A stretch of 64,000 nucleotides of DNA from Leucoraja ocellata (Eukaryota). The notes below the pieces were generated by a model, which worked only from the letters and a program-made list of their open reading frames with translations, ran no database searches and was not told the origin of the DNA. Where the stretch lies: assembly GCA_036785375.1 (NCBI GenBank), contig JAWMAR010000252.1, positions 2,666,001 through 2,730,000 of the forward strand, in the 5' to 3' direction. The translations under genes were made by a program, and so were the position numbers. Below are positions 12,806 to 61,401 of this stretch, piece by piece. Position 1 is the first letter of the stretch. Every line of letters begins with the position of its first letter.

Positions 12806-13031
12806 ACTCTCAGAATCGAGTGGTACACTATTGTGATTGGATCAAATAGCAAACTAAATGGCTTTGATAAAGTGTCAAGACTGAGATCACAGCCTTACAA
12901 AACACATCATTTAAAATTAGAAGTGCTTTCAAAATGTCACTTCGTCGGAGGCTTAGCTCTCTGCAGTGACCTGCTTTTGTTGCTGTCATGCTGTCAGTTT
13001 GTGATTTAGCTTTGACTGCTGTCAGCGGGTA

Positions 13032-14635
13032 CAGTGCCCTACATAATGTTTGGGACAAAGACCCATCATTTATTTATTTGCCTCTGTACTCCACAATTTA
13101 AAATTTGTAATAGAAAAAAAATCACATGTGGTTAAAGTGCCCTTTGTCAGATTTTATTGCTGCTTGAAGTTTGCGATTCATGGACATCACCAGTTGCTGG
13201 TTTTCTTCTCTGGTGATGCTCTGCCAGGCCTGTATTGCAGCCATCTTTAGCTTGATTGTATTGGGGGCTAGTCCCCTTCAGTTTTCTCTTAATCATATAA
13301 AAGGCATGCCCAATTATGTTCAGATCGGGTGATTGACTTGGCCACTCACAAATTGACAATTTTTTAGCTTTGAAAAACTCCTTTGTTGCTTTTCAGATTC
13401 AGATTCAGATTCAGATTCAATTTTAATTGTCATTGTCAGTGTACAGTACAGAGACAACGAAATGCATTGCAGAGACAACGAAATGCTTTTGCTTTGGGAT
13501 CATTGTCTTGCTGTACAATGAACCAGCGGCCAATGCGTTTTGAAGCGTTTGTTTGAACTTGAGCAGATAGGGTGTGTTGAAACACTTCAAAATTCATTAT
13601 GCTACTACCATCAGCAGTTGTACCATCAGCAGTTGTATCATCAATGATAAGTGAGCCAGTACCATTAGCAGCCATACATTCCCAGGCCATAACACCCACA
13701 CCACTGTGTTTCACAGATTAGGTGGTATGTTTTGGATCTTGGGCAGTTCTTTTCTCTCCTCCATACTTTGCTCTTGCCATCACTCTGATATAAGTTAATC
13801 GTCATCAAGACACGGTTCACAAGACCTTTTTTTTCCCCAGAACTGTGGTTTCTCTTTTAAGTGCTTTTGGCAAAATGTAACCTGGCCATCCTATTTTTGC
13901 TCTAGCCAGTGGTTTGCATCTTGCAGTGTAGCCTTTGTACTTTTGCTGAAGAAGTCTTCTCCGGATAGTGGTCATTGACAAATCCACACTTGACTCCTGA
14001 AAGGTGTTTTTGATCTGTCGGACAGGTGTTTGGGGATTTTTCTTTATTATAATGAGAATTCTTCTGTCATTTATCAGCTATGGAGGTCTTCCTTGCCTGC
14101 CGGTCCCTTTGCGATTAGTATGCTCACCAGTGCTCTCTTTCTTCTTAATGATGTTGCAAACAGTTGATTTTGGTAAGCCTAAGATTTGACTGATGTCCCT
14201 AACAGTTTTATTCTTGTTTCTCAGTCTCATAATGGCTTCTTTGACTTTCATTGGCACAACTTTGGTCCTCATGTTGATAAACAGCAATAAAAGTTTCCAA
14301 AGGTAATGGAAAGACTGGAGGAAAGACTATGTACTGGGAACTCTCTTATACCTGCATTAAGGAGGCATTTAACACACCTGAGCAATTGCAAACACCTGTG
14401 AAACCATGTGTCCCTTACATTATGGTGCCCTGAAATGGGGGGACTATGTATAAACACAGCTGTAATTTCTACATGGTGAAACCAAAATGTATAAAAATGC
14501 TTTATACAACAATAAAATCTGACAATGTGCACTTGAACCACATGTGATTTTTTCTAGTAGAAATCTCAATTTGTGGAGTATAGAGGCAAATAAATAAATG
14601 ATGGGTCTTTGTCCCAACCATTATGGAGGGCACTG
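13032..14635 (-). mobile_element. Tc1/mariner transposon, defective (copy 1)
   Basis: TA-CAGTGCCCT...AGGGCACTG-TA termini; transposase motifs KHSGVGVMAW, QQDNDPK, WPSQSPDLN and an N-terminal HTH on the minus strand; frameshifts and a deletion in the left TIR. Confidence 0.92.
13393..13488 (-). mobile_element. Very short LINE 3' tail (Rex1/Babar-like, (TGAATC)n) inserted in Tc1
   Basis: (tcagat)n + ttttaattgtcattgtcagtgtacagtacagagacaacgaaatgc; same sequence as 48993-49053. Confidence 0.75.
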
Positions 14636-14828
14636 TAGCTCCTGTGGATAAACTTTACACATGTGAGTGTGAAATGCATAATTGAAACTGTATTCACCCC
14701 GCTTGCATGAAACATGTTTACCTGCAACACATTATAACAGCCCTTGCATGCAAAGTAACAGGGATAAAGGGAAAACAAATACGCATATTTCAAGTCCAAG
14801 GCATTTAAAACAGAATAAAGGTTAATGT

Positions 14829-37447: not shown

Positions 37448-39258
37448 GATTGATACAAATACATCGATAGATGCTCCTGAACACATCATCAGTGATGTAA
37501 CCTGGGGTCATTGGGTGCTTTGGGTCTTTCAACAGCAGACACCCTCACCCAGGAAACCCAGCCGTGGTTGATCAGACCACGACGTGTTCAGGTGGCATTC
37601 GCTCCTCCCTATGGACCTCCTCTCCTGATCCAGAGCCATCTCGAGGCCTTCTCCGCTGCCTCAGTGGTGTTCTTGATGGCCCTTCTCCTTGCCACTCTGT
37701 TGATGCCCAGTGCACTCAAGGCTTTGTAGAGCGATTGCCCTGCAAAACCTCTGCAGCCAACCTCGATGGGCATACACCTTGCCTTCCAGCCTTGCTTGCG
37801 GCAGTCTATGACCAGTTCTTCATATTTGGCCATCTTCCTCTCGTGGGCCTCCTCCAGACGGTCCTCCCACGGCACTGTCAGTTCCAACAAGACTATGTTT
37901 TTGGTCGCCTCTGAGACCAGGAGGATGTCTGACCTCAGGGTGGTCGTGGCAATGTGCTGTGGGAACTTCAGCTGTTTCACCAGGTCTACGGAAAGCTGCC
38001 AGTCCTGCGCAGTTGCCAGGATTCCCGATGGACTCCTGGCTGCTGTGGTTAAAGGTGTTCTGGCCGGCTTCCTCTCCACTTCTCCAAACCTTTGCACAGC
38101 TAGCTGATGATGATTGTCGTCATCGTCTGCAACCTTCAGTCCACGTCTCCCTTCACAGTTGCATCTAGCACCTTGTCGACGTCCTCGTCGAACTGATGCC
38201 AGACTGCCGTCTTGCAGGCCTGAGGCCATTTGACTCGAACCTTCTCCGGAGAACTGTTCCGAGGGATTAGTTGTGCCACTTGGAGGCTTCGGGCTGTATG
38301 GGGTGATTCCGGGCCCAGCTCCTCCTGCGTCTCACCAGGTAAAATACCTGTGCGGTGTGACACTCCCTGTCCCTCCAAACACTTCATCCGGGTCGGGTGA
38401 ATCTTCAGGCCTCGGCTGTTCTTGCAAACCTTACCACATCTGCATTTGATACTCATAGTTGGTTGTCCATTGCCATTAGTCGTTAACTTTGATCTGTCCA
38501 ATTGAGGTGCTCATCCTCCCCCCTCTCGGGCACCCCTGGGGGTATTTTTCCATGTGTTTTTCTGTAGCGTGATTTGGGTCTTCTCTTCTCAGAGGATGCG
38601 GTTTGGGCTGCCAACCCATATAACCATATAACAATTACAGCACGGAAACAGGCCATCTCGACCCTTCTAGTCCGTGCCGAACACATAATCTCCCCTAGTC
38701 CCATATACCTGCACTCAGACCATAACCCTCCATTCCCTTCCCATCCATATAACTATCCAATTTATTTTTAAATGATAAAAACGAACCTGCCTCCACCACC
38801 TTCACTGGAAGCTCATTCCACACAGCTACCACTCTCTGAGTAAAGAAGTTCCCCCTCATGTTACCCCTAAACCTCAGTCCCTTAATTCTCATGTCATGTC
38901 CCCTTGTTTGAATCTTCCCTACTCTCAGTGGGAAAAGCTTTTCCACGTCAACTCTGTCTATCCCTCTCATCATTTTAAAAACCTCTATCAAGTCCCCCCT
39001 TAACCTTCTGTGCTCCAAAGAATAAAGCCCTAACTTGTTCAACCTTTCTCTGTAACTCTAGGCAACCCGCCCCGCCCCGGTTGCTGTCTTTCCGAGCTGT
39101 CCACTGTCTCCCCAGTCGTCACCACCCTATTCTTGGTTGTCAACCAGTCTATTCCTAGTCGCCACTGGTTTCACCAGCACAGTGATTGATACAAATACAC
39201 CGATAGATGCTCCTGAACACATCATCAGTGATGTAACCTGGGGTCATTGGGTGTTTCA
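37448..39258 (-). mobile_element. Internally deleted HERO/R2-group non-LTR retrotransposon (N-terminal Zn finger + restriction-like endonuclease, no RT)
   Basis: N-terminal CRCGKVCKN.RGLKIH...C; C-terminal LRSDILL...LLELTVPWED..EEAHERK..KY..L...GW....PIEVGCRGF (PD-(D/E)xK RLE); a CR1 is inserted at 38618-39062. Confidence 0.85.
38618..39062 (-). mobile_element. CR1 3' fragment nested in the HERO-like element
   Basis: LGLYSLEHRRLRGDLIE...FFTQRVVAVWNELP; TSD CAACCC at 38612-38617 / 39063-39068. Confidence 0.88.
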
Positions 39259-43017: not shown

Positions 43018-43743
43018 GGATATGGAATACATTGCCTGCGTTACAGCGGATACAGATTTGGTTGTGGCATTGAACATGTACGTGGATAAATATCTGAAAG
43101 AATTAACAGAACTATGGATGAGGCAAGGGAAATAAGGTTTCATGTTGAGTGGCCTCCTGTGCTGTAACCATTCTGTGGTTTTACATTTCATAATTATATC
43201 TATTCCATTGTGGTTACGGCTGTGCCTAGGGATTGGTGGTAAAGACGGGAATTTTTAAGACTTCTTAGTCCTGACATTCCTTTAATGTACAGTGCCCTCC
43301 ATAGTGTTTTGGACAAAAAACGATCATTTATTTATTTGCCTCTGTACTCCGTAATTTGAGATTTGAAATAGAAAAAAAAATCACATGTGGTTAAAGTGCA
43401 CATTGTCAGATTTTATTAAAGGCCATTTTTATACATTTTGGCGTCACCATGTAGAAATTACAGCTGTGTTTACACATAGTCCCCCATTTCAGGACACCAT
43501 AATGTTTGGGACACATGGCTTCACAGGTGTTTGTAATTGCTCAGGTATGTTCAAATACCTCCTAAATGCAGGTACAAGAGAGCTCTCAGCACCTAGTCTT
43601 TCCTCCAGTCTTTCCCTCACCTTTGGAAACTTTTATTGCTGTTTATCAACAGGAGGACAAAAGTTGTGCCAATGAAAGTCAAAGAAGCCATTATGAGACT
43701 GAGAAACAAGAATAAAACTGTTAGAGACATCAGTCAAACCTTA

Positions 43744-43959
43744 CGCCCCTGTCCCAATTAGGAAACCTGAACGGAAACCTCTGGAGACTTTGCGGCTCAC
43801 CCAAGGTTTCCGTGCGGTTGCAGGTGGTTGCCGGAGGTTGCAGGTAGTGGAAGCAGGTAGGGAGACTGACAAAAACCTCCGGGAACCGCGTGGAAACCTT
43901 GGATGGGGCGCAAAGTCTCCAGAGGTTTCCGTTCAGGTTTCCTAAATGGGACAGGGGCA
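43744..43959. mobile_element. Palindromic Harbinger-like MITE nested in Tc1
   Basis: gcccctgtcccaattaggaaacctgaacggaaacctctggagactttgcg ... and its reverse complement; TTA/TAA flanks at a site reading caaaccttaggc in the uninterrupted Tc1. Confidence 0.85.
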
Positions 43960-44320
43960 TAAGGCTTACCAAACTCAACTGTTTGGGGCATCATTACGAA
44001 GAAAGAGATGGTGAGCTTACTAATCGCAAAGGGACTGGCAGGTCAAGGAAGACCTCCACCTCACGCTGATGACAGAAGAATTATCTCTATAATAATGAAA
44101 AATCCCCAAACACCTGTCCGACAGATCAGAAACACTCTTAAGGAGGTAGGTGTAGATTTGTCAATGACCACTGTCTGCAGAAACAGAAATATAGAGGCTA
44201 CACTGCAAGATGCAAACCACTGGTTAGCCGCAAAAATAGGATGGCCAGGTTACGGTTTGCCAAGAAGTACTTAAAAGAGCAACCACAGTTCTGGAAAAAG
44301 GTCTTGTGGCCAGATGAGAC

Positions 44321-44466
44321 TTCTTCTTCTTCTTCTTGCGTATGGCGTGCACAGCCTAAAGTTGTAGAACAACTTGTTCTATATGATCTTATTTGATTTT
44401 GCATGCCGGGTTGATTGCATTCGTCGAAATAGGGCGGACCACGTGAAGGTTGCAATCTTCCACCCC
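44321..44466 (-). mobile_element. GAA-tailed SINE-like element, copy 3, nested in Tc1
   Basis: (ttc)n tail; duplication of cagatg(a/g)gac on both sides. Confidence 0.78.
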
Positions 44467-46519
44467 AGACAGATGGGACGAAGATTAACTTATATCAAAG
44501 TTATGGCACGAGCGAAGTATGGAGGAGAGAAAGAGCCCAAGATCCAAAGATTACCACCTCATCTGTAAAACACAGTGGTGGGAGTGTTATGGCCTGGGCA
44601 TGTTTGGCGATTTAAGGAATTCGCTCACTTATCTTCATTGATGATACAACTGCTAATGAATTCTTAAGTGTTTCGACACATCCTATCTGCTCAAGTTCAA
44701 ACAAATGCCTCAAACTCGTTGGCTGGCAGGTCATTCTACAGCAAGACCATGATCCCAAATATACTGCTAAAGCAACAAAGGAGTTTTTCAAAGCTAAAAA
44801 ATGGTAAATTCTTGAGTGGCCAAGTCAATCACCTGATCTGAACCCAATTGAGCATGCCTTTTATACGCTGAAGAGAAAACTGAAGGGGACTAGCCCCCAG
44901 AACAAGCATAAGTTAAAGATGGCTGCAATACAGGTCTGGCAAAGCATCACCTGAGAAGACACCCAGCAACTGGTGATGTCCATGAATCGCAGACTTCAAG
45001 CAGTCATTACGTGCAAAGGATATGCAACAAAATACTAAACATGACTACTTTCATTGACATGACATTACTGTGTCCCAAACATTATGGTGTCCTGAAATGG
45101 GGGACTATGTGTAAACACAGCTGTAAATTCTACATGGTGATACCAAAATGTATAAAAATGGCTTTTAATAAAATCTGACAATGTGCACTTTAACCATATG
45201 TGATTTTTTTTCTATTACAAATCTCAAATTGTGGAGTACAGAGGCATATAAATAAATGATGGGTCTTTGTCCCAAACATAATGGAGGGCACTGTATGTTA
45301 TGCCTGATGTCTATGTGGGTGGTTATCTATGCAGGTGGATAAGAACACCCTTGGGGAGGGTCCCTGAGTCCCATCGGAAATTCTGTGATTTGGGTTGAGT
45401 TAGTTATTTTGGATAGGTATCCATTGCTATCAAGCAACTAAGGAGTTCAACTCCACTGTATGAAAGAGCCATATTGCCGGATAGTTGGATTCATCTTGCC
45501 TGTTGAAGTTCCCTGCAGAAATGTGAACAATCTTGAGTTTTAAAACACACTGAAAACTGAAGACGTGTTCCGACCCGAAACGTCACCCATCCTTTTTCTT
45601 CAGAGATGCTGCCGGACGCGCTGAGTTTCTACAACACTTTGTGTCTATCTTGAGTTTTACATTTCTTGCTTTCCCAAGGGCAGCTGATTGCTCTGAAATA
45701 TTTACAACTTGCCTTATGTCAGCCTCTTTAACATTGAAACAAATGGCACTTCAGAGATGTACCAAAAGAAAGCAATTATCAGCTAAAGGACAGCTTCCTA
45801 AATGATTAGGCATTCCATCATCATCCTGTTTTCAGGTTAATTGAAATCCTATTGAAAATATGACAACAGTCTCCTTTTGTAATATTTTAGGTATGATTGA
45901 CTTTGAAAGGAACAGTTTGCAGCAATAGTAAATTTACTCAAATAAAAATATTAACAATGTAAAAACTAGTGCTTGGTTACATTTTTATTCCTACATTAGC
46001 AATGTAGAAATTAATAGTTTCATTTTCATTTTAGATTCTCTTTGTAAGCCACACTTGTTGCTGCAATTATCTTTAAACAAAGAAAGTACCGATTTCAGAT
46101 TTCGTTGGTGGGACCTTTTGTGCATTTTGTGACATGTTGTACTTTTTGGTGTGAACTGTTTCAGTTCAGAAGGGGGGGGGGGGGGGGGGTGGCCAACACA
46201 ACAATTAATTAATTACATACGCACAACAATTAAGCACAACCTTGTCAGTCGTGCATTCACAGGGGTTGAAAATGCAGAAGCCACTGCCAGTTGAACACAG
46301 ACACAGTCCATACTACTGGGATCAGATGTTGGAGGAGACTGTACCAGGTGCTACTATGACACCAACTGCCGTGAAGATTGAAGATTACTCCTGTTGGAGA
46401 CATCTGATACTGTAAATGGAGGAGAACCAAGAAAGGACAATGGGGCTATTGACCCTACTTTTTATCATGTGGTTGGCCCATGATGGGCTGGACTTGGGGA
46501 ACCACCCCTGCACCAAAAC

Positions 46520-46573
46520 ATCCTGAATAAGGTTGACAACTGTCCTTACGTTTATAACAATGACAAAGATGGA
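46520..46573 (+). pseudogene. Thrombospondin type-3 repeat fragment ([18 protein letters not shown])
   Basis: Matches the THBS1/2 DNCPYVYN.D repeat that lies upstream of the part found at 51274; short. Confidence 0.6.
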
Positions 46574-46594
46574 TCCATTGCCACAGGTTCTTGA

Positions 46595-46742
46595 AACAAC
46601 CATGAAAAGATGGCAGCTTATCCTGGAGCTACAGACCGAGCTGAAACAGAGGAGAAATGTGCTCACCAATGCCCAGTCTGAAAATGACCATCTTGTTTCC
46701 ATCACACAGCAGCTGAAGGAGAGCAATCAGGTTGTTGAGTTG
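46595..46742 (+). pseudogene. BICD2: BICD2 processed fragment (NHEKMAA / [40 protein letters not shown])
   Basis: Close match to recalled BICD2 NHKKVAA...[40 protein letters not shown], with an internal deletion. Confidence 0.85.
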
Positions 46743-46926
46743 AAAAACCTTGATTTTGGAGTGCAACTCAGTCACAGAACTGGATGGAGGTAATTCCCAG
46801 CCGGGATCAAAGTGAGGAGCTGAGTTGGGATGGATCAGACAACCAGTTGGCATTGATGGAGAAGTAAGAAAAATGCTGGTTTCACACGCTGATGGACAAC
46901 TTGGGAGGAAGAACAACTTGATTTGT

Positions 46927-47300
46927 GAAAAGCAACTACATTAGTGATGAATGTGGACAGACTTTCAAACAGCAGAAACACTTGTCAGTTCAACAAATGA
47001 GCCATACTGGAGCAAAACCTTTGCAGTGTGAAGTTTGTGGTTCCCAGTGCAGGCAGAGAGCATCCTTGAAATACCATATGACCAAGCACAAGGCAGAAGC
47101 CAAACTTGAATTTGCTTGTGACCAATGTGAGTAGCGGTTCGAGAAAGCTCACAATTTGAATGTTCATATGTCCATGGTTCATCCCTTGACCCAGAATACA
47201 GATAAAAACAAACCTATTGAAATTGAATCGTCAGCTAAGTATAGAAACATTAATTAAGCAGGAACCCAGTTAATAGTTATTCAACGGCTAAATGATGAGT
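46927..47300 (+). pseudogene. ZNF276: ZNF276 processed fragment, C-terminal zinc fingers
   Basis: NYISDECGQTFKQQKHL...GAKPLQCEVCG.QCRQRASLKYHMTKHKAE..LEFACDQCE*RFEKAHNLNVHMSMVHPLTQ; in-frame stop at 47131; no introns. Confidence 0.9.
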
Positions 47301-47543
47301 AAAGAATCTTGCACCCTTTTTCAATGTCAGCAAGACACAAAGGATTAGCATGAATAAATGCAATCAAGCCCGGCTCATCTCAAATAGGTAGAGCAATGGA
47401 AAGGTTAGTGTGGAGAATATAGTTCTGAGTATTATAACACACCAGTTAGAGAGACAAAGTCCAATGTCTGCAATAGGATAGAGGTGAATCAGGCAGAATC
47501 CTCGCAATTGGAAGGACTGTTCAGAACTCTGATAACAGAGGGC

Positions 47544-48348
47544 CAGTTACATCCTGGACATGCATTCAAGTCGCAGCATTGTTTTGAATGAGGGACAGTG
47601 CCCATCCAGTAGAATTAAGGACTCAATGGATGGTTCAATAACCCTTTCACCTTGGAATGGAACAGTGAGTTAAAATGGTGATGGTGATAATGTTGCGAAG
47701 CATCACCCTGTCCCAGTGTTAGCAGACTTTCAGTCTTGTACATAGAGTGGAGCCACTTCGCAGTCAGTGGATGTGGACAACTGGGAATCCCCATTGAAAA
47801 AGGATATGTTCTTGTGCTCAGATCCTGAATATACAGAGTATTCTTGAGAAAAAGTTCAGGTACAAGATGCAATTCAACCATTAAATGTGAAAAAAACAGT
47901 TAACTGCAATGAAGCAACTTTTCTATAAGAAACGATGTTATAGACAGATTGGAGTCCAGTGATCTTTCTGAAAGGTATTTATCAAGTGAAGATGACAGAG
48001 AAATAAAAGTTAAGAATGGCTCATCAGATGAGTCTTTTCAACCATATTGGAAGAAGAAGATTAAGTTACCAGTTAAGAAGTGCAATATTAAGGATGTGAA
48101 GATACAATCTGGACAAAAACGTGGCTGGAAACCAAAGTCAAACTTGGAAAGGGAAGATTTCCCCACCGTGTATCGATGTCAGTATAAGGGTTGCTGTGCT
48201 GTTTACAGAGGAGTTGACGGGCTTATGAAACGCATAAAAGAGCAGCAGGAAGAGGTGCGTGAAAGACCTTGCCCCACCCAGGATGTAACAAGGTGTTTCT
48301 GATTGATCGCTACCTGCAGCGCCATGTAAAGCTGATCCATACAGAAGA
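47544..48348 (+). pseudogene. ZNF276: ZNF276 processed fragment, middle region and first zinc fingers
   Basis: SDLSE...SSDESFQPY...EREDFPTVYRCQYKGCCAVYRGVDG...EEVRERPCP/HPGCNKVFLIDRYLQRHVKLIHTE with frameshifts; left edge approximate. Confidence 0.88.
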
Positions 48349-48432
48349 AAGAACATCTTTGCAGATCAGGAGGAAGTGCAAAGTTTTTGGTCACAACTTT
48401 GGAAAGACAAACCACATTTGATCAACAATCTT

Positions 48433-51149
48433 TATTTAAATCTTTTTATTTGAATTTCACAGCAATTTGCATACATACAATGATAACAGACAGTGACAGT
48501 CAAGGCATAATTGTGCAACAGTATGTAAGCGACCCTCAAAGCCCTTACCCTTGCCCACCTTCAACCCACCCGAATCGGGTCGGAACGAAACGGGGACAAA
48601 CAACACTCACATACGTACACATCCACACAAATATGGTAAGATAAACGAAACAAAAAGTACTAAAGAAAAAAAAAAAGAAAAAAAGGGGGGTCACTAATAA
48701 CAGCAAATAAGTAAGTAATTAAATTAATAAGGGTGGGGAGGGGGGGGGTTAAAGGGAGAGCAGCTGCAGTAGAGCAGAACAATGGTGGAGAGCACTGAGT
48801 TCTCTTCCGAGTCCGGGGACAAGTTGAGAGAGTTAACAAGTTCCAAGAAAGGGTTCCATGTATCTAGGAATGTCTTGGTAGAGCCTTTGAGAGAGAACCT
48901 AAGTTTTTCAAGCTTTAAATTGTAAAGCACCTCCTTCATCCAGCGGGCGTGTGTCGGGGGACAGGTGAGCCTCCAGTTAAGCAAGATCAGATGATTCAGA
49001 TTCAATTTTAATTGTCATTGTCAGTGTACAGTACAGAGACAACGAAATGCATTTTTCAATGTTTCCCATCTCTTCTTCAGTGATCCAAAATGCAAAGCTT
49101 TGGTCTGGGGTGTGTTTCTCGGAGATCTGCACCAGCTCTGATTTGTAAATCAACTTCTTCAACTCTTCTGTCGAAATCTTATCTGACTGTCCTTTAGCTT
49201 CCACCTTGAAGGATGACATTAAGTATCCAGTGTTGACTTTCTTGGTTTCACTGAAGTTTGGTTCAATCTCCACTCCATCAGAATCAAACTTTCTTTTGTG
49301 GATTTTCGTTGGCTTAATATACAGAATGAAGTAACGGTACTTACTGTCGGTCTCGTCCTCGATCTGATGCCGGGTCACCAGCAGTAGTTCCCCTTCCAGC
49401 ACCGCACCAGGACCACATGGTGTCCGTGTGGCGGTGGCGGTGGCCGGGGTCCAGCAGCCGGGGAGGCGGTGTCGATGCACCGGGTCGACCCGCAGCCGCT
49501 CGTCGCTGGGTTAACAAGGTTGTAAAAGCTAGGACCCGTTTCACCGCAACAGAGAGGTTGGTGTTGGGAGGGGTACCGGAAATGGCTGACAGTGGGTTTG
49601 GAGGAATAGCCTGGCCATAGGCTCTGCTTATCAAGTCGAAAGCACTCCTCCAAAAGGCTGCTAGCATCTGTTGCAGGTGTCCCTAACAGCGGGGTAAATT
49701 CTAGATAATCTTGCATTTGTGTAGTGGACTTTGTGAAGGACTTTGCATTGGATTAGGCCATGACGGGCACATATGGAGGAAGAATGGATCAAATCCAAGG
49801 CAGATTCCCATTGCTGGTCTGTTAGTTTCGTATTCAGCTCACCCTCCCACACAGCTTTTAATGAGGTATGAGGTTTCAATATAACCGACCCTAACAAGTT
49901 ATACAAAACAGAGATGCATTTCTTCCGGTTGGGATCTAGAGCTAACATGGTATTGGTCAGGGTTTCAGGGGGGCGATTTGGGAAATGGGGGAATGTCTTC
50001 TTCACAAAATCCCTAATCTGGAAAAAACGAAAAAGGTGGGAGTTTGGGAGGCTGTAGTTGGACGAGAGCTCCGCAAAGGACGAAAAGATGTCATCCTTGT
50101 ATAGGTTTTTGATACTACTGATACCGTTGCTGTGCCAGGTTTTGAATGCGGGGTCTGTACTTGAAGGTTTAAAGATGTGGTTTTTAAGCAGTGGGGTCAA
50201 GATGGAAGGGCCTTGTAAACCAAAGTTTTTCCTGAGTTGACTCCATATCTTGAGCGAGAGGGACGCAATTGGGCCTGCACCCACAGATGTTATAGGAAGG
50301 GGGAGTTGGGAGCATAGGACAGACCGCAACGGAAGACGTGAACTCGCCTTTTCCATGTGTACCCAGGTCGGTAGGTGGTCGCAATCATCATTCATCCAAT
50401 ACAGGAGTTTTTGCAAGTTAACTGCCCAATAGTATCGCCTAAAGTCAGGAAGTGCCAAACCGCCGTCACTCTTAGGAGACTGCAGTATCGCCTTTCGGAT
50501 TCTAGCCGGTTTGCTACCCCATAAAAATTTAGATATTGTCCTTTCTAATTTATCAAAAAAAAGATTTAGTGATAAGTATAGGGACGTGCTGGAAAAGATA
50601 CAGGAATTTGGGTAGGACAACCATCTTGACCAGATTTATCCGGCCCACGAGGGATAGCGGTAAAACTGACCGGCGGTCAAAATCTCTTTCGGCTTTCTCA
50701 ACCAGAGGCAGAAAGTTTGTGCGGAACATATCAGATAAGGGTGTTGTGATAAAAACGCCGAGGTAGCAAAACCCGTCCTCTGCCCATTTGAATGAGGTTA
50801 AAGAGCGAGGGAGCTGCTTAGCCAATGAGTTAATCGGTAATAGCTCACTCTTTTGGTAGTTCCAGTTTGGTGAACGCTGCATTGAATTCTGCCAGTAGCG
50901 ATATCTTGTGCTCTGTTAACATGGCTGCTAGCGTGGCCACGCCGGTGCTGGTCGTCGGGTGTTCCGTCTTTTGCTCCTCTTTCTTTCCTCTGCCTGGCAT
51001 CTTTATGGCGTGGAGAGGTGCTGTCAATAGTGTTTAAATATTTATGGGTAGTTATAAAACTTAGGCTGAGCTATAATAAAAGTTGGAGGTGAACAGGTCG
51101 GGAGCGTGGAAAAGTGCGACTGCTCCAACATGTCGCCCCCAGCGGGTCT
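48433..51149 (-). mobile_element. Internally deleted L1-clade LINE (5'UTR + ORF1 start fused to the C-terminal half of ORF2 + 3'UTR)
   Basis: 16-bp TSD TTTGATCAACAATCTT (48417-48432 / 51150-51165); ORF2 motifs YLGV, LSLVGRINLVKMVVLPKFLYLFQ, GGLALPDF..YYWA, C..C; AATAAA near the 3' end. Confidence 0.92.
49055..49508 (-). pseudogene. ARPIN: ARPIN processed cDNA fragment (about residues 6-150), fused 3' to a LINE tail
   Basis: RLPGCW.PA...GAVLEGELL.VTRH...RYFILYIKP..IHKRKFDSDGVEIEPNFSETKKVNTGYLMSSFKVEAKGQSD...FAFW matches recalled Arpin; open frame, no introns. Confidence 0.92.
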
Positions 51150-51273
51150 TTTGATCAACAATCTTGAAGCATTTTGAGCTCTATCGTATGATCAAGGGTC
51201 TAGAAAGAGAGAAGCTGAACATTTTGAAACAGATGGACCTCTTGAAAGAGATTCCAGGAAGATAATCTCAAAG

Positions 51274-52027
51274 CTGGTGGGGAATCAGTGTGATGACATT
51301 CAGCACATTGATGAGGATGGCAATGATGGTGTTTCTGATGAGAAGGACTATTGCCGTTTTGTTCCCAACCCTGACCAGATCGATGCCGATGGTAACAGCA
51401 GAGGAGACAACTGCAAGGACGACTTTGACAACAACATCCCAGATATCTATGACGTGTGCCCCGAGAACAGCGCCATCAGTGAGACTGATCTGAGGATGTT
51501 TCAAAGGGGACGATGCAGATCGTTCCTAACTGGGTAGTGCCCAACAAGGGCAGGGAGTAACTGCAGACCGCCAACTCTGACCCTGGCCTTGCTGTCGGAT
51601 TTGAGGAGTTCAACGCTATCAACTTCAGTGGCACCTTCTAGATCAACACAGACTACAATCTACGCTGGCTTTGTCTTTGGCTTCCAGTCCAGCAGAGGCT
51701 TCTACGTGGTGATGTGGAAACAGGCCATCCAAACCTACTAGGAGAAACTGTCCAAACTCCTGGATATGCTAGCGTCTAGATCAAGGTGATGAACCCCACC
51801 ACAGGAGGAAAGTGGAGTGGAGGGGAGGGGAGTGGAGAGGGGGGGGGGGGGGGGGTGGAGTGGAGAGCACCTCACCTGTGCAACGATCTATGAAGAGAAT
51901 AGCAACACCCTCGGACAGGTGCAAACTTTATGGCACAACCCCTTTCGGCTGAAAGGATTACACCCCCTACAGGTGGCACCTGATCCATTGACCCTAAACA
52001 AGCTTCATCGGGATGGTTGTCAATGAA
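51274..52027 (+). pseudogene. THBS2: Thrombospondin-2-like (subgroup A) processed fragment: type-3 repeats + C-terminal L-lectin domain
   Basis: LVGNQCD...[90 protein letters not shown]; stops and deletions; no introns; THBS1 vs THBS2 not certain. Confidence 0.85.
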
Positions 52028-52154
52028 GAGAATGAGAACTGGTTGCCATACCATTGGTTTGATGGACTTTGGGGTACTGTGATACATTATGGCTCTATCA
52101 TTCAGCTAATCATTTCTCTAATACTTGCGACCAGTGTGTGTACCTACCGAGGAC
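52028..52154 (+). mobile_element. Candidate retroviral env TM-subunit remnant + PPT remnant
   Basis: ENENWLPYHWFDGLWGTVIHYGSIIQLIISLILATSVC: Trp-rich juxtamembrane segment plus hydrophobic anchor; GAGGAC immediately before the TG of the candidate LTR. Confidence 0.5.
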
Positions 52155-52725
52155 TGTGAATGTTATCATTTTTGATAAAAATGAGGGCATGAAAGAGCTA
52201 ATAGTCAAATCTAAAATGGAGTCGTTCTTCTACAAACGCATGGTCTAGCAAAACAAAAGAATTGCTCGGTGCCAAGTCTGAATGACATTGTAAATTATGT
52301 GGAACACAATATGGAGGACGTTGTCTTTTTAATAAAGAAATTAAGATGGGATCCTGCAGTAATAACATGTGCTTCTTCAAGGCCATAAAGAAGCCAAGAT
52401 TGAAAAAAATAGCTGACGCCCTAGAGATAAGTAATAACTTGTTATTGGATGAGCTGATTTAGACCCAGCTTTACTATATTGTGAAAGGCTACAGAATCTT
52501 TCAGTCATGCCATATTCAGACTTGGTCGGTGTTTTACTGATAAAAAAAATGTATAATTGTGCTCACTCGCCTTTGTTTTTTGAGTGGGAGCACGAGAAGC
52601 ACTGAGCACTGTATTTGCTCATTGTAATCTTGCCACTTCCGTCTGACGAATCAATTAAAGATTGCCAATTCTTTCAAACCTTCAACGTTTGTTGCTATCT
52701 GCTTTTTAAGAAACAAACTTTCACA
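52155..52725 (+). mobile_element. Candidate 3' LTR (571 bp)
   Basis: TGTGAATGTT...AACTTTCACA termini (9/10 inverted match, TG..CA); TATAA at 52552, hairpin 52559-52593, ATTAAA at 52654, in U3-R-U5 order; no partner LTR found. Confidence 0.55.
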
Positions 52726-53096
52726 TAAAGCTTTGTAGGTTAATTGGCTTCAGTAAAAATAGTAAATTGTCCCTAGTGTGTAGGAGAGTGCTAGAGCACA
52801 GGGTGGTCGCTGGTCCGAATGGAATCGGTTTATTTTAATTATTTCAATTCTGCAATTAAACTATCATATTTGAAACAATGCTTGAAAGTGTAATAAATAT
52901 TGAATTATGATTAACATTATCATTCAACCAACGACAAAGGTGCTGTGAATGATCGTCCTGTAAAAGGATCTATTTAAATGCAAGGTCGTGTTGTTGACAT
53001 ATTTCTAAAATACAACTACAGGCATCACCCGTAATAAATATATATATATCAACTCTTTCTTTTGTTTCAAATTATTGATTTACTTCATCATTCTAG

Positions 53097-53154
53097 GCAG
53101 CTTGTTTGCCGATGTCGATAATTATTGTTGGCGTTGGGCCTGCAGAATTTAATG
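53097..53154 (+). CDS. CPNE8: Copine-8 exon (AACLPMSIIIVGVGPAEFN)
   Basis: ttctag acceptor, gtaag donor; LPMSIIIVGVG motif. Confidence 0.95.
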
Positions 53155-53955
53155 GTAAGAAATATCAAGTTTGTATGTCAAAGATGAGAATGGCATTAAT
53201 GTTATTCGATATGAGAGGGATTTAAATTGAATGAAGTAGAAGGCAACATTTTTAGTAGAATTGTGCAGAGAAGTACTGTTCTAGTTCAGAAATATAAATA
53301 TAGTTATTAAAATTGCTGTAAAATAACACATCCAATAACTTTTATGTCATTTAATTATGTTAGTTGCTGACAAGCATAGAACTTACTCTCCAGAAGTTAC
53401 CGAACTAAGGAGAAAATAGGATTAGGTTTTTGTTTGAACAGATATTTTTTTTAAAATTAGGCTTTCTTCCTGTGATGAAATTGCCTTGTCCAATATAACC
53501 AAATATGTATGTACAACTCTTATGGTTAATTTACGTAAATTAATTTTCAAAGAACTAACTTGATTGATTTGTTACTTCTTTCTTCATGTTTATTCACTCG
53601 GGTGGAAATCAAACTATTCTGTTTATTAAACGTTTTGGATAATACATTTTAACTTGCCCATATCCAGGCCTTACACATCTGGCCCAGGATTTCCGATGTT
53701 AAAGTCTAGACCAAAAGGAACATTTATGTTTACTTCTAATAATCAACATATTCTCTATTATTACCTAAAGCCACCATTTCAAGCAACTGTCCCTCCCCAA
53801 TAATGGAAAAGCCAGAAAATGAATCTGTTATGTATCACCATGGAAAACAGATACAGCCATTATGTTTAAACCAGTTCCATATTTGCTGTTCTTTGCTCTA
53901 TCAGAATGATGCAACAATATGTTTTACATATTCATTGATTCTTCTTTGTTTGCAG

Positions 53956-54029
53956 CAATGGAAGAATTAGATGGAGATGAGATCCGGATATCATCAAGAG
54001 GAAGATATGCCGAGAGAGATATTGTTCAG
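53956..54029 (+). CDS. CPNE8: Copine-8 exon ([24 protein letters not shown])
   Basis: ttgcag acceptor, gtaag donor; LDGD...RDIVQ motif. Confidence 0.96.
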
Positions 54030-54227
54030 GTAAGATGTGGAAGGATGTAGTCTTGAATCACCCACTGATACAAAAGGATGTAAAAACTGCATCTAAATTC
54101 ATTTGAAAAATATTACAGGAGATTTTATTACTTGTTGAAATGAATAGAATTTTCTAATGTAAAGAAAAAATATGCCATCTTAATTAAAACTTTATTAAAA
54201 TGTTGTGAACACTTTTATATATTCATG

Positions 54228-56860
54228 TCATTAGAGCAGAAATAGGCCATTCAGCCCATCGAGTCTACTCCGCCATTCAATTATGGCTGATCTGTCTATA
54301 TCTCTCAACCCCATTCTTCTGCTTTCTCCCATAACCCTTGATGCCCGTGCTAATCAAGTATCTGTCAATTTCTGCCTTAAAAATACCCAATGCCCTGGCC
54401 TTCACAGCCAGCAGTGGCAATGAATTTCACAGATTCATTACCCTCTGACTAAAGAAATTCCTCCTCATCTCCTTTCTAAAGATCTCCACCCCCTCCATAA
54501 TTTTCTAAATTCCAGCTAGTACAAGCCTAATGCCATGAAACGTTCGCCGTGTGTTACCCCAATTATCCTCGTAAACCCCCTCTGGACCCTGTCCAATGCC
54601 TTCCTCAGATATGTGGCCCAAAACTGCTCACAAATGCAGTCTGACTAGTGCCTTATAAAGCCTCAGCATTATATCCCTGTTTTTATATTCTATTCTCTCA
54701 AAATAAATACTGACATTGCATTTGCCTTTCTTGCTAGCAATTCAACTTACAAATTAATCTTTTGGAAATCCTGCACCAGCACTCCCAAGTCTCTTTGCAC
54801 CTCCAATTTCTGATTCCTCTCCCTATTTAGAAAATAGTGTATGCCTTTATTCCTACTACCAAAATCCATTACTGCATGCTGCATTGTATTCCATCTGCCT
54901 CTTCTTTGTCCATCCTCCCAACCTGTCTGAGTCCTCCTGCAGAGTCCCTGCTTCCACCACACTACCTGCCCCTTCACCTATCTTCATATCAGTAGCAAAC
55001 TTGGCCACAAAGCCATCAATTCCATCATCCAAATCATTGATATGCAACGTGAAGAATTGTGGCCCCAGCATCGACCCTTTTGGAACACCACTAGTCACTG
55101 GCAGCCAACCAGAAAAAGCCCCCTTTATTCACACTCTTTGCCTTTGCCAATCATCCAGCCTTCTATCGCTGCTAGTATCTTCCCCCTCCTACCATGTGCT
55201 CTCATCCTCTTTAGCAGTCTCACAGGTGACACCTAATCGAAGGCCTTCTGAAAATACAGATAAACAATATCTAATGAATTTCCTTTGCCTATTCTATTAA
55301 CTTCCTCAAAGAAATCCAATAGATTTGTCAGGCAAGATTTTCCCTTCACTTAACCATGCTGTCATCAGCCTTTTTTATCATGTGTTTCTAAGTACTCGGA
55401 AACCTCATTCTTAATAATGGACTCTAAATCTTACCAAACACTGAAGTCAGGCTAACCGGTCTATAATTTCCCCTCTTTTGCTTCACTCCTGTCTTGAACA
55501 ACAGAGTACCATTTGCAATTTTCCCATCCTCTGGAACCATTCCTGACTCGTGATTCTTGAAAGATCACCACTAATGCCTCCAGTCTCTAAAGTCATCTAT
55601 TTCAGAACCCTGGCGTATAGTCCATTTGGTCCAGGTGACTTATCCACTTTCAGATCTTTCAGCTTTCCAAGCACCTTCTCCTTAATAATAGCTACTCCAC
55701 TAACTTCTGCTCACTGTTAAATTTCATGCACGTTGCTGGTGTCTTCCAGAGTGAAGACTGACATAAAAAAACATATTAAATTCCTCTATTTCCATATTCC
55801 CCATTATCACTTCTCCAGTATCATTTTCCAGCGGTCCAATGTCCACTCTTGCCTCTCCCTTACTTTTTATATATCTGAAGAAACTCTTGCTATCCTCTTT
55901 TATATTATTTGATAACTTACCTTCATATTTAACTTTTTTGCCTTTTTGGTTACCTTCTGGTGGTTTTTAAAAGCTTCCCAATACTCCTTGCAATATTATA
56001 GGCCCTCTCCTTTAGTGTTGTGCTGTCTTCGACTTCCCTTGACAGCCACGGTCACCTCATTCTCCTCTTAGTATATTTCTTCCTCTATTTGGGATGAAAA
56101 GATCCTGTGAATTATTTCTGGAAAATTCTGCCATTGCTGCTCCACCATCATTCCTGCTGAAGTCCCTTCCCAATCCACCAGCCATCTCCTCCCTCATGCC
56201 TCTGTAGTCACATTTCCTCAACGGTATTACCAACACATCCAATTTCATCTTTTCCCTCTCAAACTGCAGGTTGAGTTTTATATTATAGTCACTACCTCTG
56301 AGGGGTTCCTTTACATTAAGATGCCTAATGAAATCCACTTTATTACACAATACCAAATCCAGAATTGCCTTTTCCCTTGTAAGCTCGACTACAAGCTGCC
56401 CTAAGAAGCTATCTCCTAGGCACTCTACAAATTCATTTTCTTGGGATCCAGTGCCGACCTGATTTTCCCAGTCTGCCTGCATATTGAATCCCCAATGATC
56501 ACTGTAACATTGCCTTTCTTACATATTTGTTCCTTACATCTTGGCTACTGTTTGGAGGCCTGTATATAACTTCCATCCGGGTCTTTTTACTCTTGCAGTT
56601 TCTTAGCACTACCCACAAGGATTCTACATTTTTATTTAAATCCTATGTCACCCCTTGTTCATGATTGAATTTATTTCCTTAACAGCAGAGCTACCCCACC
56701 CCCTCTGCCCACCTGTCTGTCTTTTTGAGAGACCTTCGATATTCAGCACCCTGCTCCGATCCTCTTTTAGCCATGTCTCCGTGAAGCCCACATTGCACCT
56801 ACTAATTTCTAACTGATCTATAAGTTCAACCACTTTGTTCCGTATATTGCGTGCATTTAA
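54228..56860 (-). mobile_element. Large decayed CR1 (APE endonuclease + RT + 3'UTR)
   Basis: YLNARNIRNK..TETW, AILDLVL, SGVPKGSMLGP..F..HINDL, KFA.D.K; many disablements. Confidence 0.88.
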
Positions 56861-58936: not shown

Positions 58937-61212
58937 TATAAATGACTTGGATATAAATGTAGATGGGTTTGTCAGTAAGTAAGGAGCCAACAACAAAATA
59001 TATGGTTGATGTGACAGCGAGGAAGGCTGTCTATGGATACAGTAGGGAAATAGATCAGTGACAGATAGAGGCAGAGAAATGACAGATGGAATTTAATCCA
59101 AGCAAGTCTCGGGTCACTTTGGGAGGTGAAATGTGTCGAGTTCATTGCAAGATTCTCAATAGCATTAATGTCTAGAGGAATCTTGGGTTCCAAGTCCTAA
59201 AAGTGTCAACACAAGTAGATAAAGTGTAAAGATGATGCATGATATGCTTGCTTTCACATGTCCAATGAATTGAGTATAAGAGTCATGTTGCTGCTTTATA
59301 ACATTTTGGTTACAAAAACTTACAAAATTCTTAAGGGGTTGGACAGGCTAGATGCAGGAAGATTGTTCCCGATGTTGGGGAAGTCCAGGACAAGGGGTCA
59401 CAGCTTAAGGATAAGGGGAAAATCCTTTAAAACCGAGATGAGGAGAACTTTTTTCACACAGAGAGTGGTGAATCTCTGGAACTCTCTGCCACAGAGGGTA
59501 GTTGAGGCCAGTTCATTGGCTATATTTAAGAGGGAGTTAGATGTGGCCCTTGTGGCCAAGGGGATCAGAGGGTATGGAGAGAAGGCAGGTACGGGATACT
59601 GAGTTGGATGATCAGCCATGATCATATTAAATGGCGGTGCAGGCTCGAAGGGCCGAATGGCCTACTCCTGCACCTAATTTCTATGTTTCTATGTTTCTAT
59701 GTTAGGCCATTTTTGGAGTACTATGTGCATTCCTGGTTGCCACAGTACAAGAATTTGAAAGCTTTGGAAAGGATGGAGAAGGGGTTTACCAGAATGCTGT
59801 CTGGATTAGAGGGTACTAACTTTAAGAAGAGATTGACAAACGTGGATTGTTTTCGCTGGTGCGTCGGAGGTTGAGGGTAGACCTGATACAAGTATATAAA
59901 ATCATGAGAGGCATATTTAGGGTAGATTGTTACAAGCTTTTTCTCATAGTGGAAACGTCAAAGACAAGAGGGCATAGCTTAATGGTCAAAATGCAGAGGG
60001 GATGTGCAGGTCAGGTTCTTTACAGTTATTGGTGGGTGATGGAATGTGCTGTCAGAGGTGGCGTTGAAAGCAGCCATGATAGCTGTGTTTAAGAGACTTT
60101 TAGATAGACACATGGATTTGCAATGAATGGAGGGGATGGCACTCCCTTTTGCACTGGACCACTTGATCAATAACTACAGCTCGGGTTCAACACCAGCATC
60201 CCCTACAAACCTTTTAATGGTGCCTTAAAAACATCAGCAAGCCAAAGAGCTGATTATTGACTTTAGAAGAGGGAAACCGAGGATCCACAAGCTTGTCTTC
60301 ATCGACGGGTTGGCGGTGGAGTCAACAACGTCGAGATCCTAGGTGTGCATATCTCTGATGATGTGTCCTGGGCCCAGCACATTGATGTAATCTTAAAGAA
60401 AGTCCATCAATGTGTCTACCTTTTTAAAAGACTGCAGATTTGCCATGTTGACGTATACTCTCTTGAATCTCAACAGGTGGACAGATGGGAGATGTTCAGG
60501 TAACATAAAATGCTAGGTCATGGAATAGAATAACCTTCATTCCTGGGTATTCAAGTTGCCAAACTAGACGCGATGTAACCAGTCAATACGCTCTCTACTG
60601 TACACCTGTAAAGGTTTAAGAGGTTGTTTTCCACTCTGGGAATGTGTTTTCCACCCTTTCCAGTTCTATCTCTACGTCTTTCTACCCCCACCTCCAGTTG
60701 TACTTTTACACCTTAGAATGCTGTCCTGCAAATCAGTTTCCATATTCCCTAATTCTATGGCATTTAAAAAAAATTGAAGTCGTAGGAAGTCACTTGAAGC
60801 TTCTTTGAGAAGAGTTTGTCATGGTGATATCATTTCAATAGATATAGATTTTATCTGCATTGGCAGTTTACTCAAAGAATATGGAATTATAAATAACTGC
60901 CAAGAGTTGACTGCCGGACATCATGCTTCTTGATCTAAATATTCAAATAATAGATCTGACAGCATGTTTGCCTTTATAAACAATGTGATATTTCAATAAT
61001 TGAGAGAATGAAATCATTGGTTTATTTTTCTGACTAGAATATGTTCTATTGATGTGAATTATTGGCTTTGGAAAAAATAATCATAAAAATATATGGTTAT
61101 AAGCCTAACATTAACCAACTTGCTTAGCCTTTACTATTTTAAAATATATTTGTATGTTTCTTTCTCTGTGCCTTTGCATGATAATTGATCACAATTTAAA
61201 ATTTGTTTTTAG

Positions 61213-61401
61213 TTTGTGCCTTTTCGGGACTATGTTGACAGGACTGGAAACCACGTACTGAGTATGGCTCGACTTGCAAAGGATGTTTTAGCTGAAATTC
61301 CAGAACAGTTTCTTTCATACATGAAAGCAAGAGGAATTAAGCCTTCCCCTGCTCCTCCCCCATATACTCCCCCAGGTTATCCTTTGCAGACACAGCTTTA
61401 A
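61213..61401 (+). CDS. CPNE8: Copine-8 last coding exon ([33 protein letters not shown]...[15 protein letters not shown])
   Basis: ttttag acceptor, TAA stop; C-terminal [15 protein letters not shown] tail is what I recall for CPNE8 among copines. Confidence 0.94.

Follow-up and report, generated by a model that had tools for sequence, protein, structure and literature searches.

Introduction

Transducing retroviruses replace env by cellular mRNA. Such viruses were introduced in PMC5131818, and fish ERVs with cellular genes are mentioned in PMC8672886. LTR-mediated chimeric retrocopies, such as maize Bs1 and the mouse four-gene “Super” retrocopy, are composed of partial mRNAs from several genes without poly(A), and they are characterised by microsimilarity at the switch points, retroelement sequence on the outside, switch points common to different copies and repeated cycles (PMC5131818). 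CircRNA-derived pseudogenes are non-colinear, intron-free and without poly(A), and lie in a retroviral neighbourhood (PMC4897178). Duplications that pass through circular DNA show an order swap with a single break and short scars at the closing and insertion junctions (PMC7188851, PMC7450558). The locus described here is similar to each of these three systems in the respects listed, with the outer retroelement sequence, the common switch points and the repeated cycles being putative for it, and similar to the transducing retroviruses in that cellular sequence is placed between a pol end and a putative env end with an LTR.

The analysis covered a window of 64,000 nucleotides from Leucoraja ocellata (GCA_036785375.1, contig JAWMAR010000252.1, positions 2,666,001 to 2,730,000 of the forward strand), in which a ZNF276 retrocopy circularly permuted at one breakpoint had been predicted. 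All positions below are those of the window.

Results

Circular permutation of the ZNF276 copy

Alignment with Amblyraja ZNF276 (P0003) by tblastn and by a frameshift-aware method revealed that the upstream block, 46934-47270, encoded residues 519-631 and was followed directly by the stop codon at 47271-47273, and that the middle block encoded residues 245-518 (Table 1). The back half preceded the front half, both on the plus strand, with a closing junction between them and a single opening point. One block ended at R518 and the other started at N519, with a residue gap of 0 and an overlap of at most about two codons, which was concealed by the purine-rich junction. No further ZNF276 pieces were scored by tblastn in the 64-kb window. 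These results agreed with the original prediction that the halves are complementary and in swapped order, one of them starting at the residues next to the end of the other at the HTE/ERNY break; its coordinates were shifted, since the upstream block started at 46934 instead of 46927 and the ZNF276 similarity of the middle block extended back to about 47537.

Table 1. Positions of the features around the permuted ZNF276 copy
Feature	Position	Strand	Remarks
Probable decayed integrase C-terminal end	46342-46376	+	Two adjacent motifs in different frames; gene broken
Short frame with hydrophobic core, candidate env leader	46416-46515	+	Position after pol; Kyte-Doolittle 2.58 over 11 residues, 46446-46478
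THBS2 cDNA piece, residues 811-833 (Mobula numbering)	46520-46573	+	15/18 aligned residues identical
Linker, 46 nt	46574-46619	.	Between THBS2 and BicD pieces; without match in searches
Bicaudal-D family cDNA piece	46620-46748	+	Pfam BicD E 1.7e-11, above curated cut-off; family level only
Left flank of permuted block	46749-46908	+	Presumed CRACR2/RAB44-type mRNA
Left copy of 11-nt target duplication	46909-46919	+	10/11 identical to 48349-48359
Junction filler	46915-46933	+	Imperfect repeat of first ZNF276 codons; overlaps duplication
ZNF276 processed copy, residues 519-631 and stop	46934-47273	+	1 frameshift, 1 premature stop
43 nt after stop codon	47274-47316	.	Outside repeat match
Antisense 3' tail, presumably LINE-type	47317-47546	-	71% identity to 2309-2529
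Closing junction	47537-47546	+	About 10 nt common to repeat and ZNF276 codons 241-244
ZNF276 processed copy, residues 245-518	47545-48352	+	2 frameshifts, 3 stops, 4-codon deletion
Right copy of 11-nt duplication (48349-48359) and right flank	48349-48432	+	
Later insertion, internally deleted L1-like element	48433-51149	-	No Pfam hit for L1 class
Flank mRNA piece, continued	51166-51253	+	Last 7 codons open little-skate model P0121; no PDB hit
THBS2 cDNA piece, about residues 850-1132	51255-52027	+	33-codon deletion, several frameshifts and stops
Possible env membrane anchor and tail	52031-52200	+	By inspection; hydrophobicity modest, 1.76 over 19 residues
Possible 3' LTR, 375 nt	52350-52724	+	A/T-rich, TATA-like at about 52540; ATTAAA at 52654; ends ACA
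Copine exons	53094-53153, 53958-54029, 61207-61344	+	Pfam Copine

The in-frame ZNF276 stretches were identical to the Leucoraja and Amblyraja proteins at 105/129, 107/117, 26/26, 93/100 and 12/12 residues. For the frame 47913-48299, the closest relatives among 263 hits out of 396 candidates were the Amblyraja and Leucoraja proteins (87%), followed by Rhinoraja (85%). Trees of 11 named proteins from cartilaginous fishes, out of a list of 120, placed the two informative stretches among skates (100/99) and one of these stretches next to Amblyraja and Leucoraja (94/88). The copy carried four stops and three frameshifts in total, with both kinds of damage in both halves; it is dead as a gene, and no function was evident. 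Changes at sites conserved in three batoids amounted to 16/209 and 7/104 for the two blocks (Fisher p=1.0), as expected for one parent and one event, and differing ages for the two halves were ruled out by this equal decay. An origin from different paralogs, or a large gap or overlap, had been named as the outcome that would speak against a single permuted copy; instead, the halves shared the same parent lineage and decay and had no sizeable gap or overlap. The circular permutation of the ZNF276 copy is real.

Introns and junctions

Intron positions were deduced from an alignment of 26 named ZNF276 isoforms and orthologues rather than from the skate gene itself, and were placed after residues 184, 340, 364, 515 and 549. 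The middle block crossed the positions after S340, K364 and T515 without an intron, and the 3' block did the same after Q549. The absence of these four isoform-inferred introns indicates a processed copy, whose donor was spliced and not genomic DNA. The copy started (residues 241-245; S245/P241) inside the exon spanning residues 185-340, and the R518/N519 break was about 8 nt beyond the T515 intron position, where no isoform-inferred exon edge occurs. The terminal exon with the stop codon was included in the block. No run of at least six A was found as a poly(A) remnant at any ZNF276 junction in 46900-48460.

The spacer between the two blocks matched a second repeat copy at 2309-2529, with 155 of 217 aligned bases identical. 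We take it to be an old 3' tail, presumably of LINE type, in antisense orientation; a Pfam search of 47317-47546 gave no match. A reading of the same stretch as L1 reverse transcriptase coding sequence was dropped after alignment with its other copy. Across 47274-47316, which is probably the start of the 3'UTR, the repeat alignment could not be extended to the stop codon above shuffles (457/1000). At the closing junction, the other copy of the repeat paired at 12 of the last 14 bases through 47546, and the same bases at 47537-47546 read as E242-G243 of Amblyraja P0003. Because about 10 nt belonged to both the repeat and ZNF276, this junction is a microhomology joint and not a splice. A back-splice at this place, considered in the original prediction, was not supported: with respect to the isoform-inferred exon edges the junction lies in mid-exon, the terminal exon is included, and the joint is formed by microhomology with the repeat.

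On the outside, AAGAACAACTT at 46909 and AAGAACATCTT at 48349 formed an 11-nt near-duplication around the block, with 10 of 11 bases identical. A match of 11 nt with one mismatch was reached by 0 of 194 random same-size window pairs and a match of 10 by five of them, for a search area that was picked after inspection. The junction filler was identical to 46934-46952 at 12 of 19 bases and matched the codon pattern of residues 519-523 at 12 of 14; across the roughly 64,000 positions of the window, this score was attained at 10. Microsimilarity was present at all three ZNF276 junctions. Judged from these sequences, the permuted block is one discrete insertion in a formerly continuous sequence that resembled ZNF276 at its opening point.

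The surrounding mosaic

The ZNF276 block was surrounded by a multi-gene mosaic bounded by retrovirus-like sequence, which had been missed in the earlier reading. As a layer of such a mosaic, the block points to a different enzyme than it would alone. On the sense strand the order was THBS2, BicD, an unconfirmed gene, ZNF276 and THBS2 again. The two THBS2 pieces on either side of the others were colinear, about 10 codons having been lost. The first THBS2 piece was detected by tblastn with P0125 (E 3e-4) and by Pfam TSP_3 (E 0.065). The linker between the THBS2 and BicD pieces is possibly another captured fragment. The left flank, the right flank and 51166-51253 are presumably consecutive parts of a CRACR2/RAB44-type mRNA; Pfam, sequence-atlas, homologue and PDB searches of the flanks gave no name, and a search of representatives gave two weak unnamed matches, which were not used. 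The three mRNAs identified by tools (THBS2, BicD and ZNF276) were on the same strand as the integrase motifs. Around the whole mosaic, no terminal repeat or target duplication was found above shuffles. The second THBS2 piece also contained an expanded G-rich microsatellite at 51800-51860.

The Leucoraja erinacea model P0121 (thrombospondin-2-like, 223 aa) started with the same seven flank residues, and comparison with 51233-51942 of the window showed a common flank-THBS2 junction, 33-codon deletion and frameshifts. Going by this resemblance, the P0121 “gene” is very probably no genuine thrombospondin but a decayed part of this mosaic. The shared junction, deletion and frameshifts show that the mosaic exists in a second assembly, as an orthologue or as a second copy.

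The later L1-like insertion was flanked by 16-nt target duplications at 48417-48432 and 51150-51165, which were identical at 16/16 bases. It held an ARPIN piece at 49055-49504 (Pfam E 3e-52) and a young 67-nt repeat tail at 48987-49053, which was 95.7% identical to 13399-13468. The ARPIN piece, joined to this tail, interrupted the last reading frame of the element, and it represents another route, distinct from the first, by which mRNA was captured here.

In a search that reached upstream to 42000, the first copine exon was detected some 4.7 kb downstream of the ZNF276 block and in the same orientation, and the mosaic presumably lies within a copine intron. The final copine exon reads like CPNE8. 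Other elements of the window were a Tc1-like DNA transposon at 43288-45295, with terminal inverted repeats 93% identical between 43288-43515 and 45069-45295, and a second Tc1-like copy at about 13029-14637 in the opposite orientation; Pfam gave transposase hits. Frames at 37609-38510 on the minus strand resemble an R2/NeSL-type non-LTR retrotransposon endonuclease and zinc finger. An Rfam search of 44000-55000 gave 0 matches.

Putative retroviral frame

The mosaic looks like it sits inside a decayed retrovirus, whose candidate env and LTR ends were recognised by inspection. At its left edge, the integrase motifs at 46342-46356 and 46359-46376 each occurred once in the six frames of the window, with a joint chance of about 2e-8 before allowing for recognition of the motifs after the fact. 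The same two motifs adjoin at Pol C-termini, with 6 and 3 occurrences, in supplementary file 6 of PMC1224870, a source in which the GPY/F region is tied mainly to gamma- and epsilon-like retroviruses. In the window, the residues beside the GPY/F-type motif matched the published Pol ends and the motif core was decayed; the region gave no Pfam or PDB hit, and a literature full-text search of the two motifs returned unrelated papers only. At 46172-46189, where the putative provirus lacks its 5' part, its left edge carried an 18-G run.

From its position, we take the short frame after pol as a candidate env leader; it had no database match. The candidate anchor had no significant hit in Pfam, PDB or the atlas. 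The features of the possible 3' LTR were compared with those in PMC3601003. No second LTR copy or LTR pair was found in the window, no purine run of at least 11 was present upstream of the putative 3' LTR, and of the parts that characterise a class I endogenous retrovirus, a 5' LTR, a primer-binding site, gag and RT went undetected in the window.

Relative age of the layers

THBS2 was more decayed overall than ZNF276, with 47/178 against 10/166 changed sites (p=2e-7). Once changes that a single C>T or G>A substitution can produce were set aside, together with the poorly aligned residues 1076-1090 and site 904, 21 changes were left in THBS2 and 8 in ZNF276 (p=0.011-0.021). Among 74 conserved THBS2 sites comparable with P0121, 2 changes were shared, 9 were private to the window and 8 were private to P0121, with one site counted on both sides. 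The window-private rate (9/74) was not significantly above the 10/166 of ZNF276 (p=0.12-0.24), a result that would fit capture at about the same time as integration. Of the two layers ZNF276 is probably the younger, and both capture in a later cycle and insertion in place agree with the data.

Discussion

The reading that we favour, at about an even chance, is that a retroviral-type reverse transcriptase switched templates during the copying of a defective ERV RNA and in this way took up the ZNF276 fragment, from one mRNA in two passes. Most of env in the ERV RNA would already have been replaced by pieces of other mRNAs. Moving along the RNA in reverse, the enzyme would have left the viral RNA at a purine-rich stretch resembling ZNF276 codons 516-523, copied ZNF276 from R518 back to P241, and then used the 10-nt match to jump to a point beyond the stop codon, in the antisense LINE tail. 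From there it may have copied back to N519 and run out of template, since the portion first copied would by then have been removed by RNase H. Removal of copied template by RNase H is established retroviral biochemistry, and it is its use at this locus that is proposed here. After a short stutter, the enzyme would have rejoined the viral RNA some 11 nt behind the point where it had left, and the outcome would be an exact permutation without a covalent circle. Two-pass copy choice accounts for the exact break, the sense orientation, the missing poly(A), the long junction matches and the neighbouring mRNA pieces. We counted in favour of capture the integrase motifs at the left edge of the mosaic, the strand that these motifs share with the three tool-identified mRNAs, the colinear split of THBS2, the closing and outer junctions with their matches of 10-11 nt and without A runs, and the flank-THBS2 junction, deletion and frameshifts shared with P0121; against it were counted the missing 5' LTR, gag, RT and LTR pair, the env and LTR candidates without database support, and the unconfirmed flank gene. 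The original prediction had proposed a circular RNA or cDNA, or a cleaved mRNA copied by a jumping reverse transcriptase. Its single template opened at one point was upheld, a back-spliced circle was not, and the jumping enzyme comes nearest to our best reading. More tentatively, and with more doubt than belief, a skate family of defective retroviruses may have taken up host mRNA pieces in successive nested rounds, this copy being one linear mRNA taken up in two passes and permuted at a point that depended on what RNase H had removed of the part copied first.

A later insertion in place, by target-primed reverse transcription with a LINE enzyme on a looped or non-spliced circular ZNF276 RNA, seems to us rather unlikely, and several observations fit it. 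The nicked target would prime internally at the purine-rich R518-N519 stretch, which accounts for the missing poly(A), and one full turn would leave the 11-nt duplication, itself also a product of target-primed insertion, with filler at the far junction. The stronger decay of THBS2 fits such an insertion just as well as capture, and the unrelated L1-like insertion about 60 nt away shows that in-place insertions do strike this spot. Non-colinear pseudogenes can also form from linear RNAs with close ends (PMC4897178). However, the implied nick, TCTT/CC, is unlike the TCTT/GA of the neighbouring insertion, and a rare retrocopy would need to have hit, in sense orientation, a mosaic of other mRNA pieces that is 3 kb long. 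Jumps downstream on the same strand are moreover the rarest class (3 cases) of L1 rearrangements in the available part of 10.1101/2024.08.27.596794. Compared with an L1-type processed pseudogene, the skate block has a target duplication, of 11 nt with one mismatch and an atypical nick context, and lacks the 3' poly(A).

If microhomology had joined the ends of a ZNF276 cDNA to form a DNA circle, and this circle had been opened at R518/N519 before its insertion at a chromosome break, the product would have the swapped order that is the defining signature of such circles (PMC7188851, PMC7450558), and cDNA capture at breaks is reported (PMC6368560). The published junction homologies are 1-2 bp and 1-4 bp (PMC7450558, PMC6368560), as against 10-11 nt here, and the opening at the very place where the circle resembles the target is left unexplained; we consider this route improbable. 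Two independent ZNF276 captures, or an assembly artefact, are very improbable. The locus is indeed a mosaic of many pieces, but the halves are exactly complementary, equally decayed and bracketed by one duplication, both carry stops and frameshifts, and part of the mosaic is present in another assembly, in P0121. A canonical pseudogene of a back-spliced circRNA is hardly credible: non-colinear order, missing poly(A) and LTR-rich flanks are all described for this class (PMC4897178), but here the junctions do not coincide with exon edges as deduced from isoforms, the block contains the terminal exon, and it is closed through a microhomology joint.

Swapped-order retrocopies are usually taken as proof of back-spliced circular RNA, and the skate copy has the order without the splice junction. 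It is consequently a worked case of permutation by microhomology, with three junctions that are each legible to the base. Provided that the retroviral reading is true, nested multi-gene capture reaches the cartilaginous fishes and offers a route to permuted coding sequences; if the two-pass reading is true, a vertebrate coding sequence can undergo exact circular permutation in the germ line without splicing and without a circle. In the literature covered, mostly without subscription papers, no splice-free, fully permuted retrocopy in an LTR chimera and nothing on this locus was found.

Each of the known systems differs from the skate copy in some respect. Duplications by circular DNA involve kilobase genomic segments, whereas the skate block is a 1.4-kb spliced cDNA with matches of 10-11 nt (PMC7188851, PMC7450558). 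Transducing retroviruses carry one reading frame, and several short dead fragments are present here. In contrast to circRNA-derived pseudogenes (PMC4897178), the skate copy is without a back-splice junction, has the stop-codon exon and makes one complete turn inside the duplication. Among the LTR-mediated chimeric retrocopies in the available part of PMC5131818 no permuted case was met, and the skate copy differs from them by one permuted mRNA with an exact break and by nested pieces; an LTR pair was not detected here. The ZNF276 block would extend these known LTR-mediated chimeric retrocopies, and it imitates a circRNA pseudogene.
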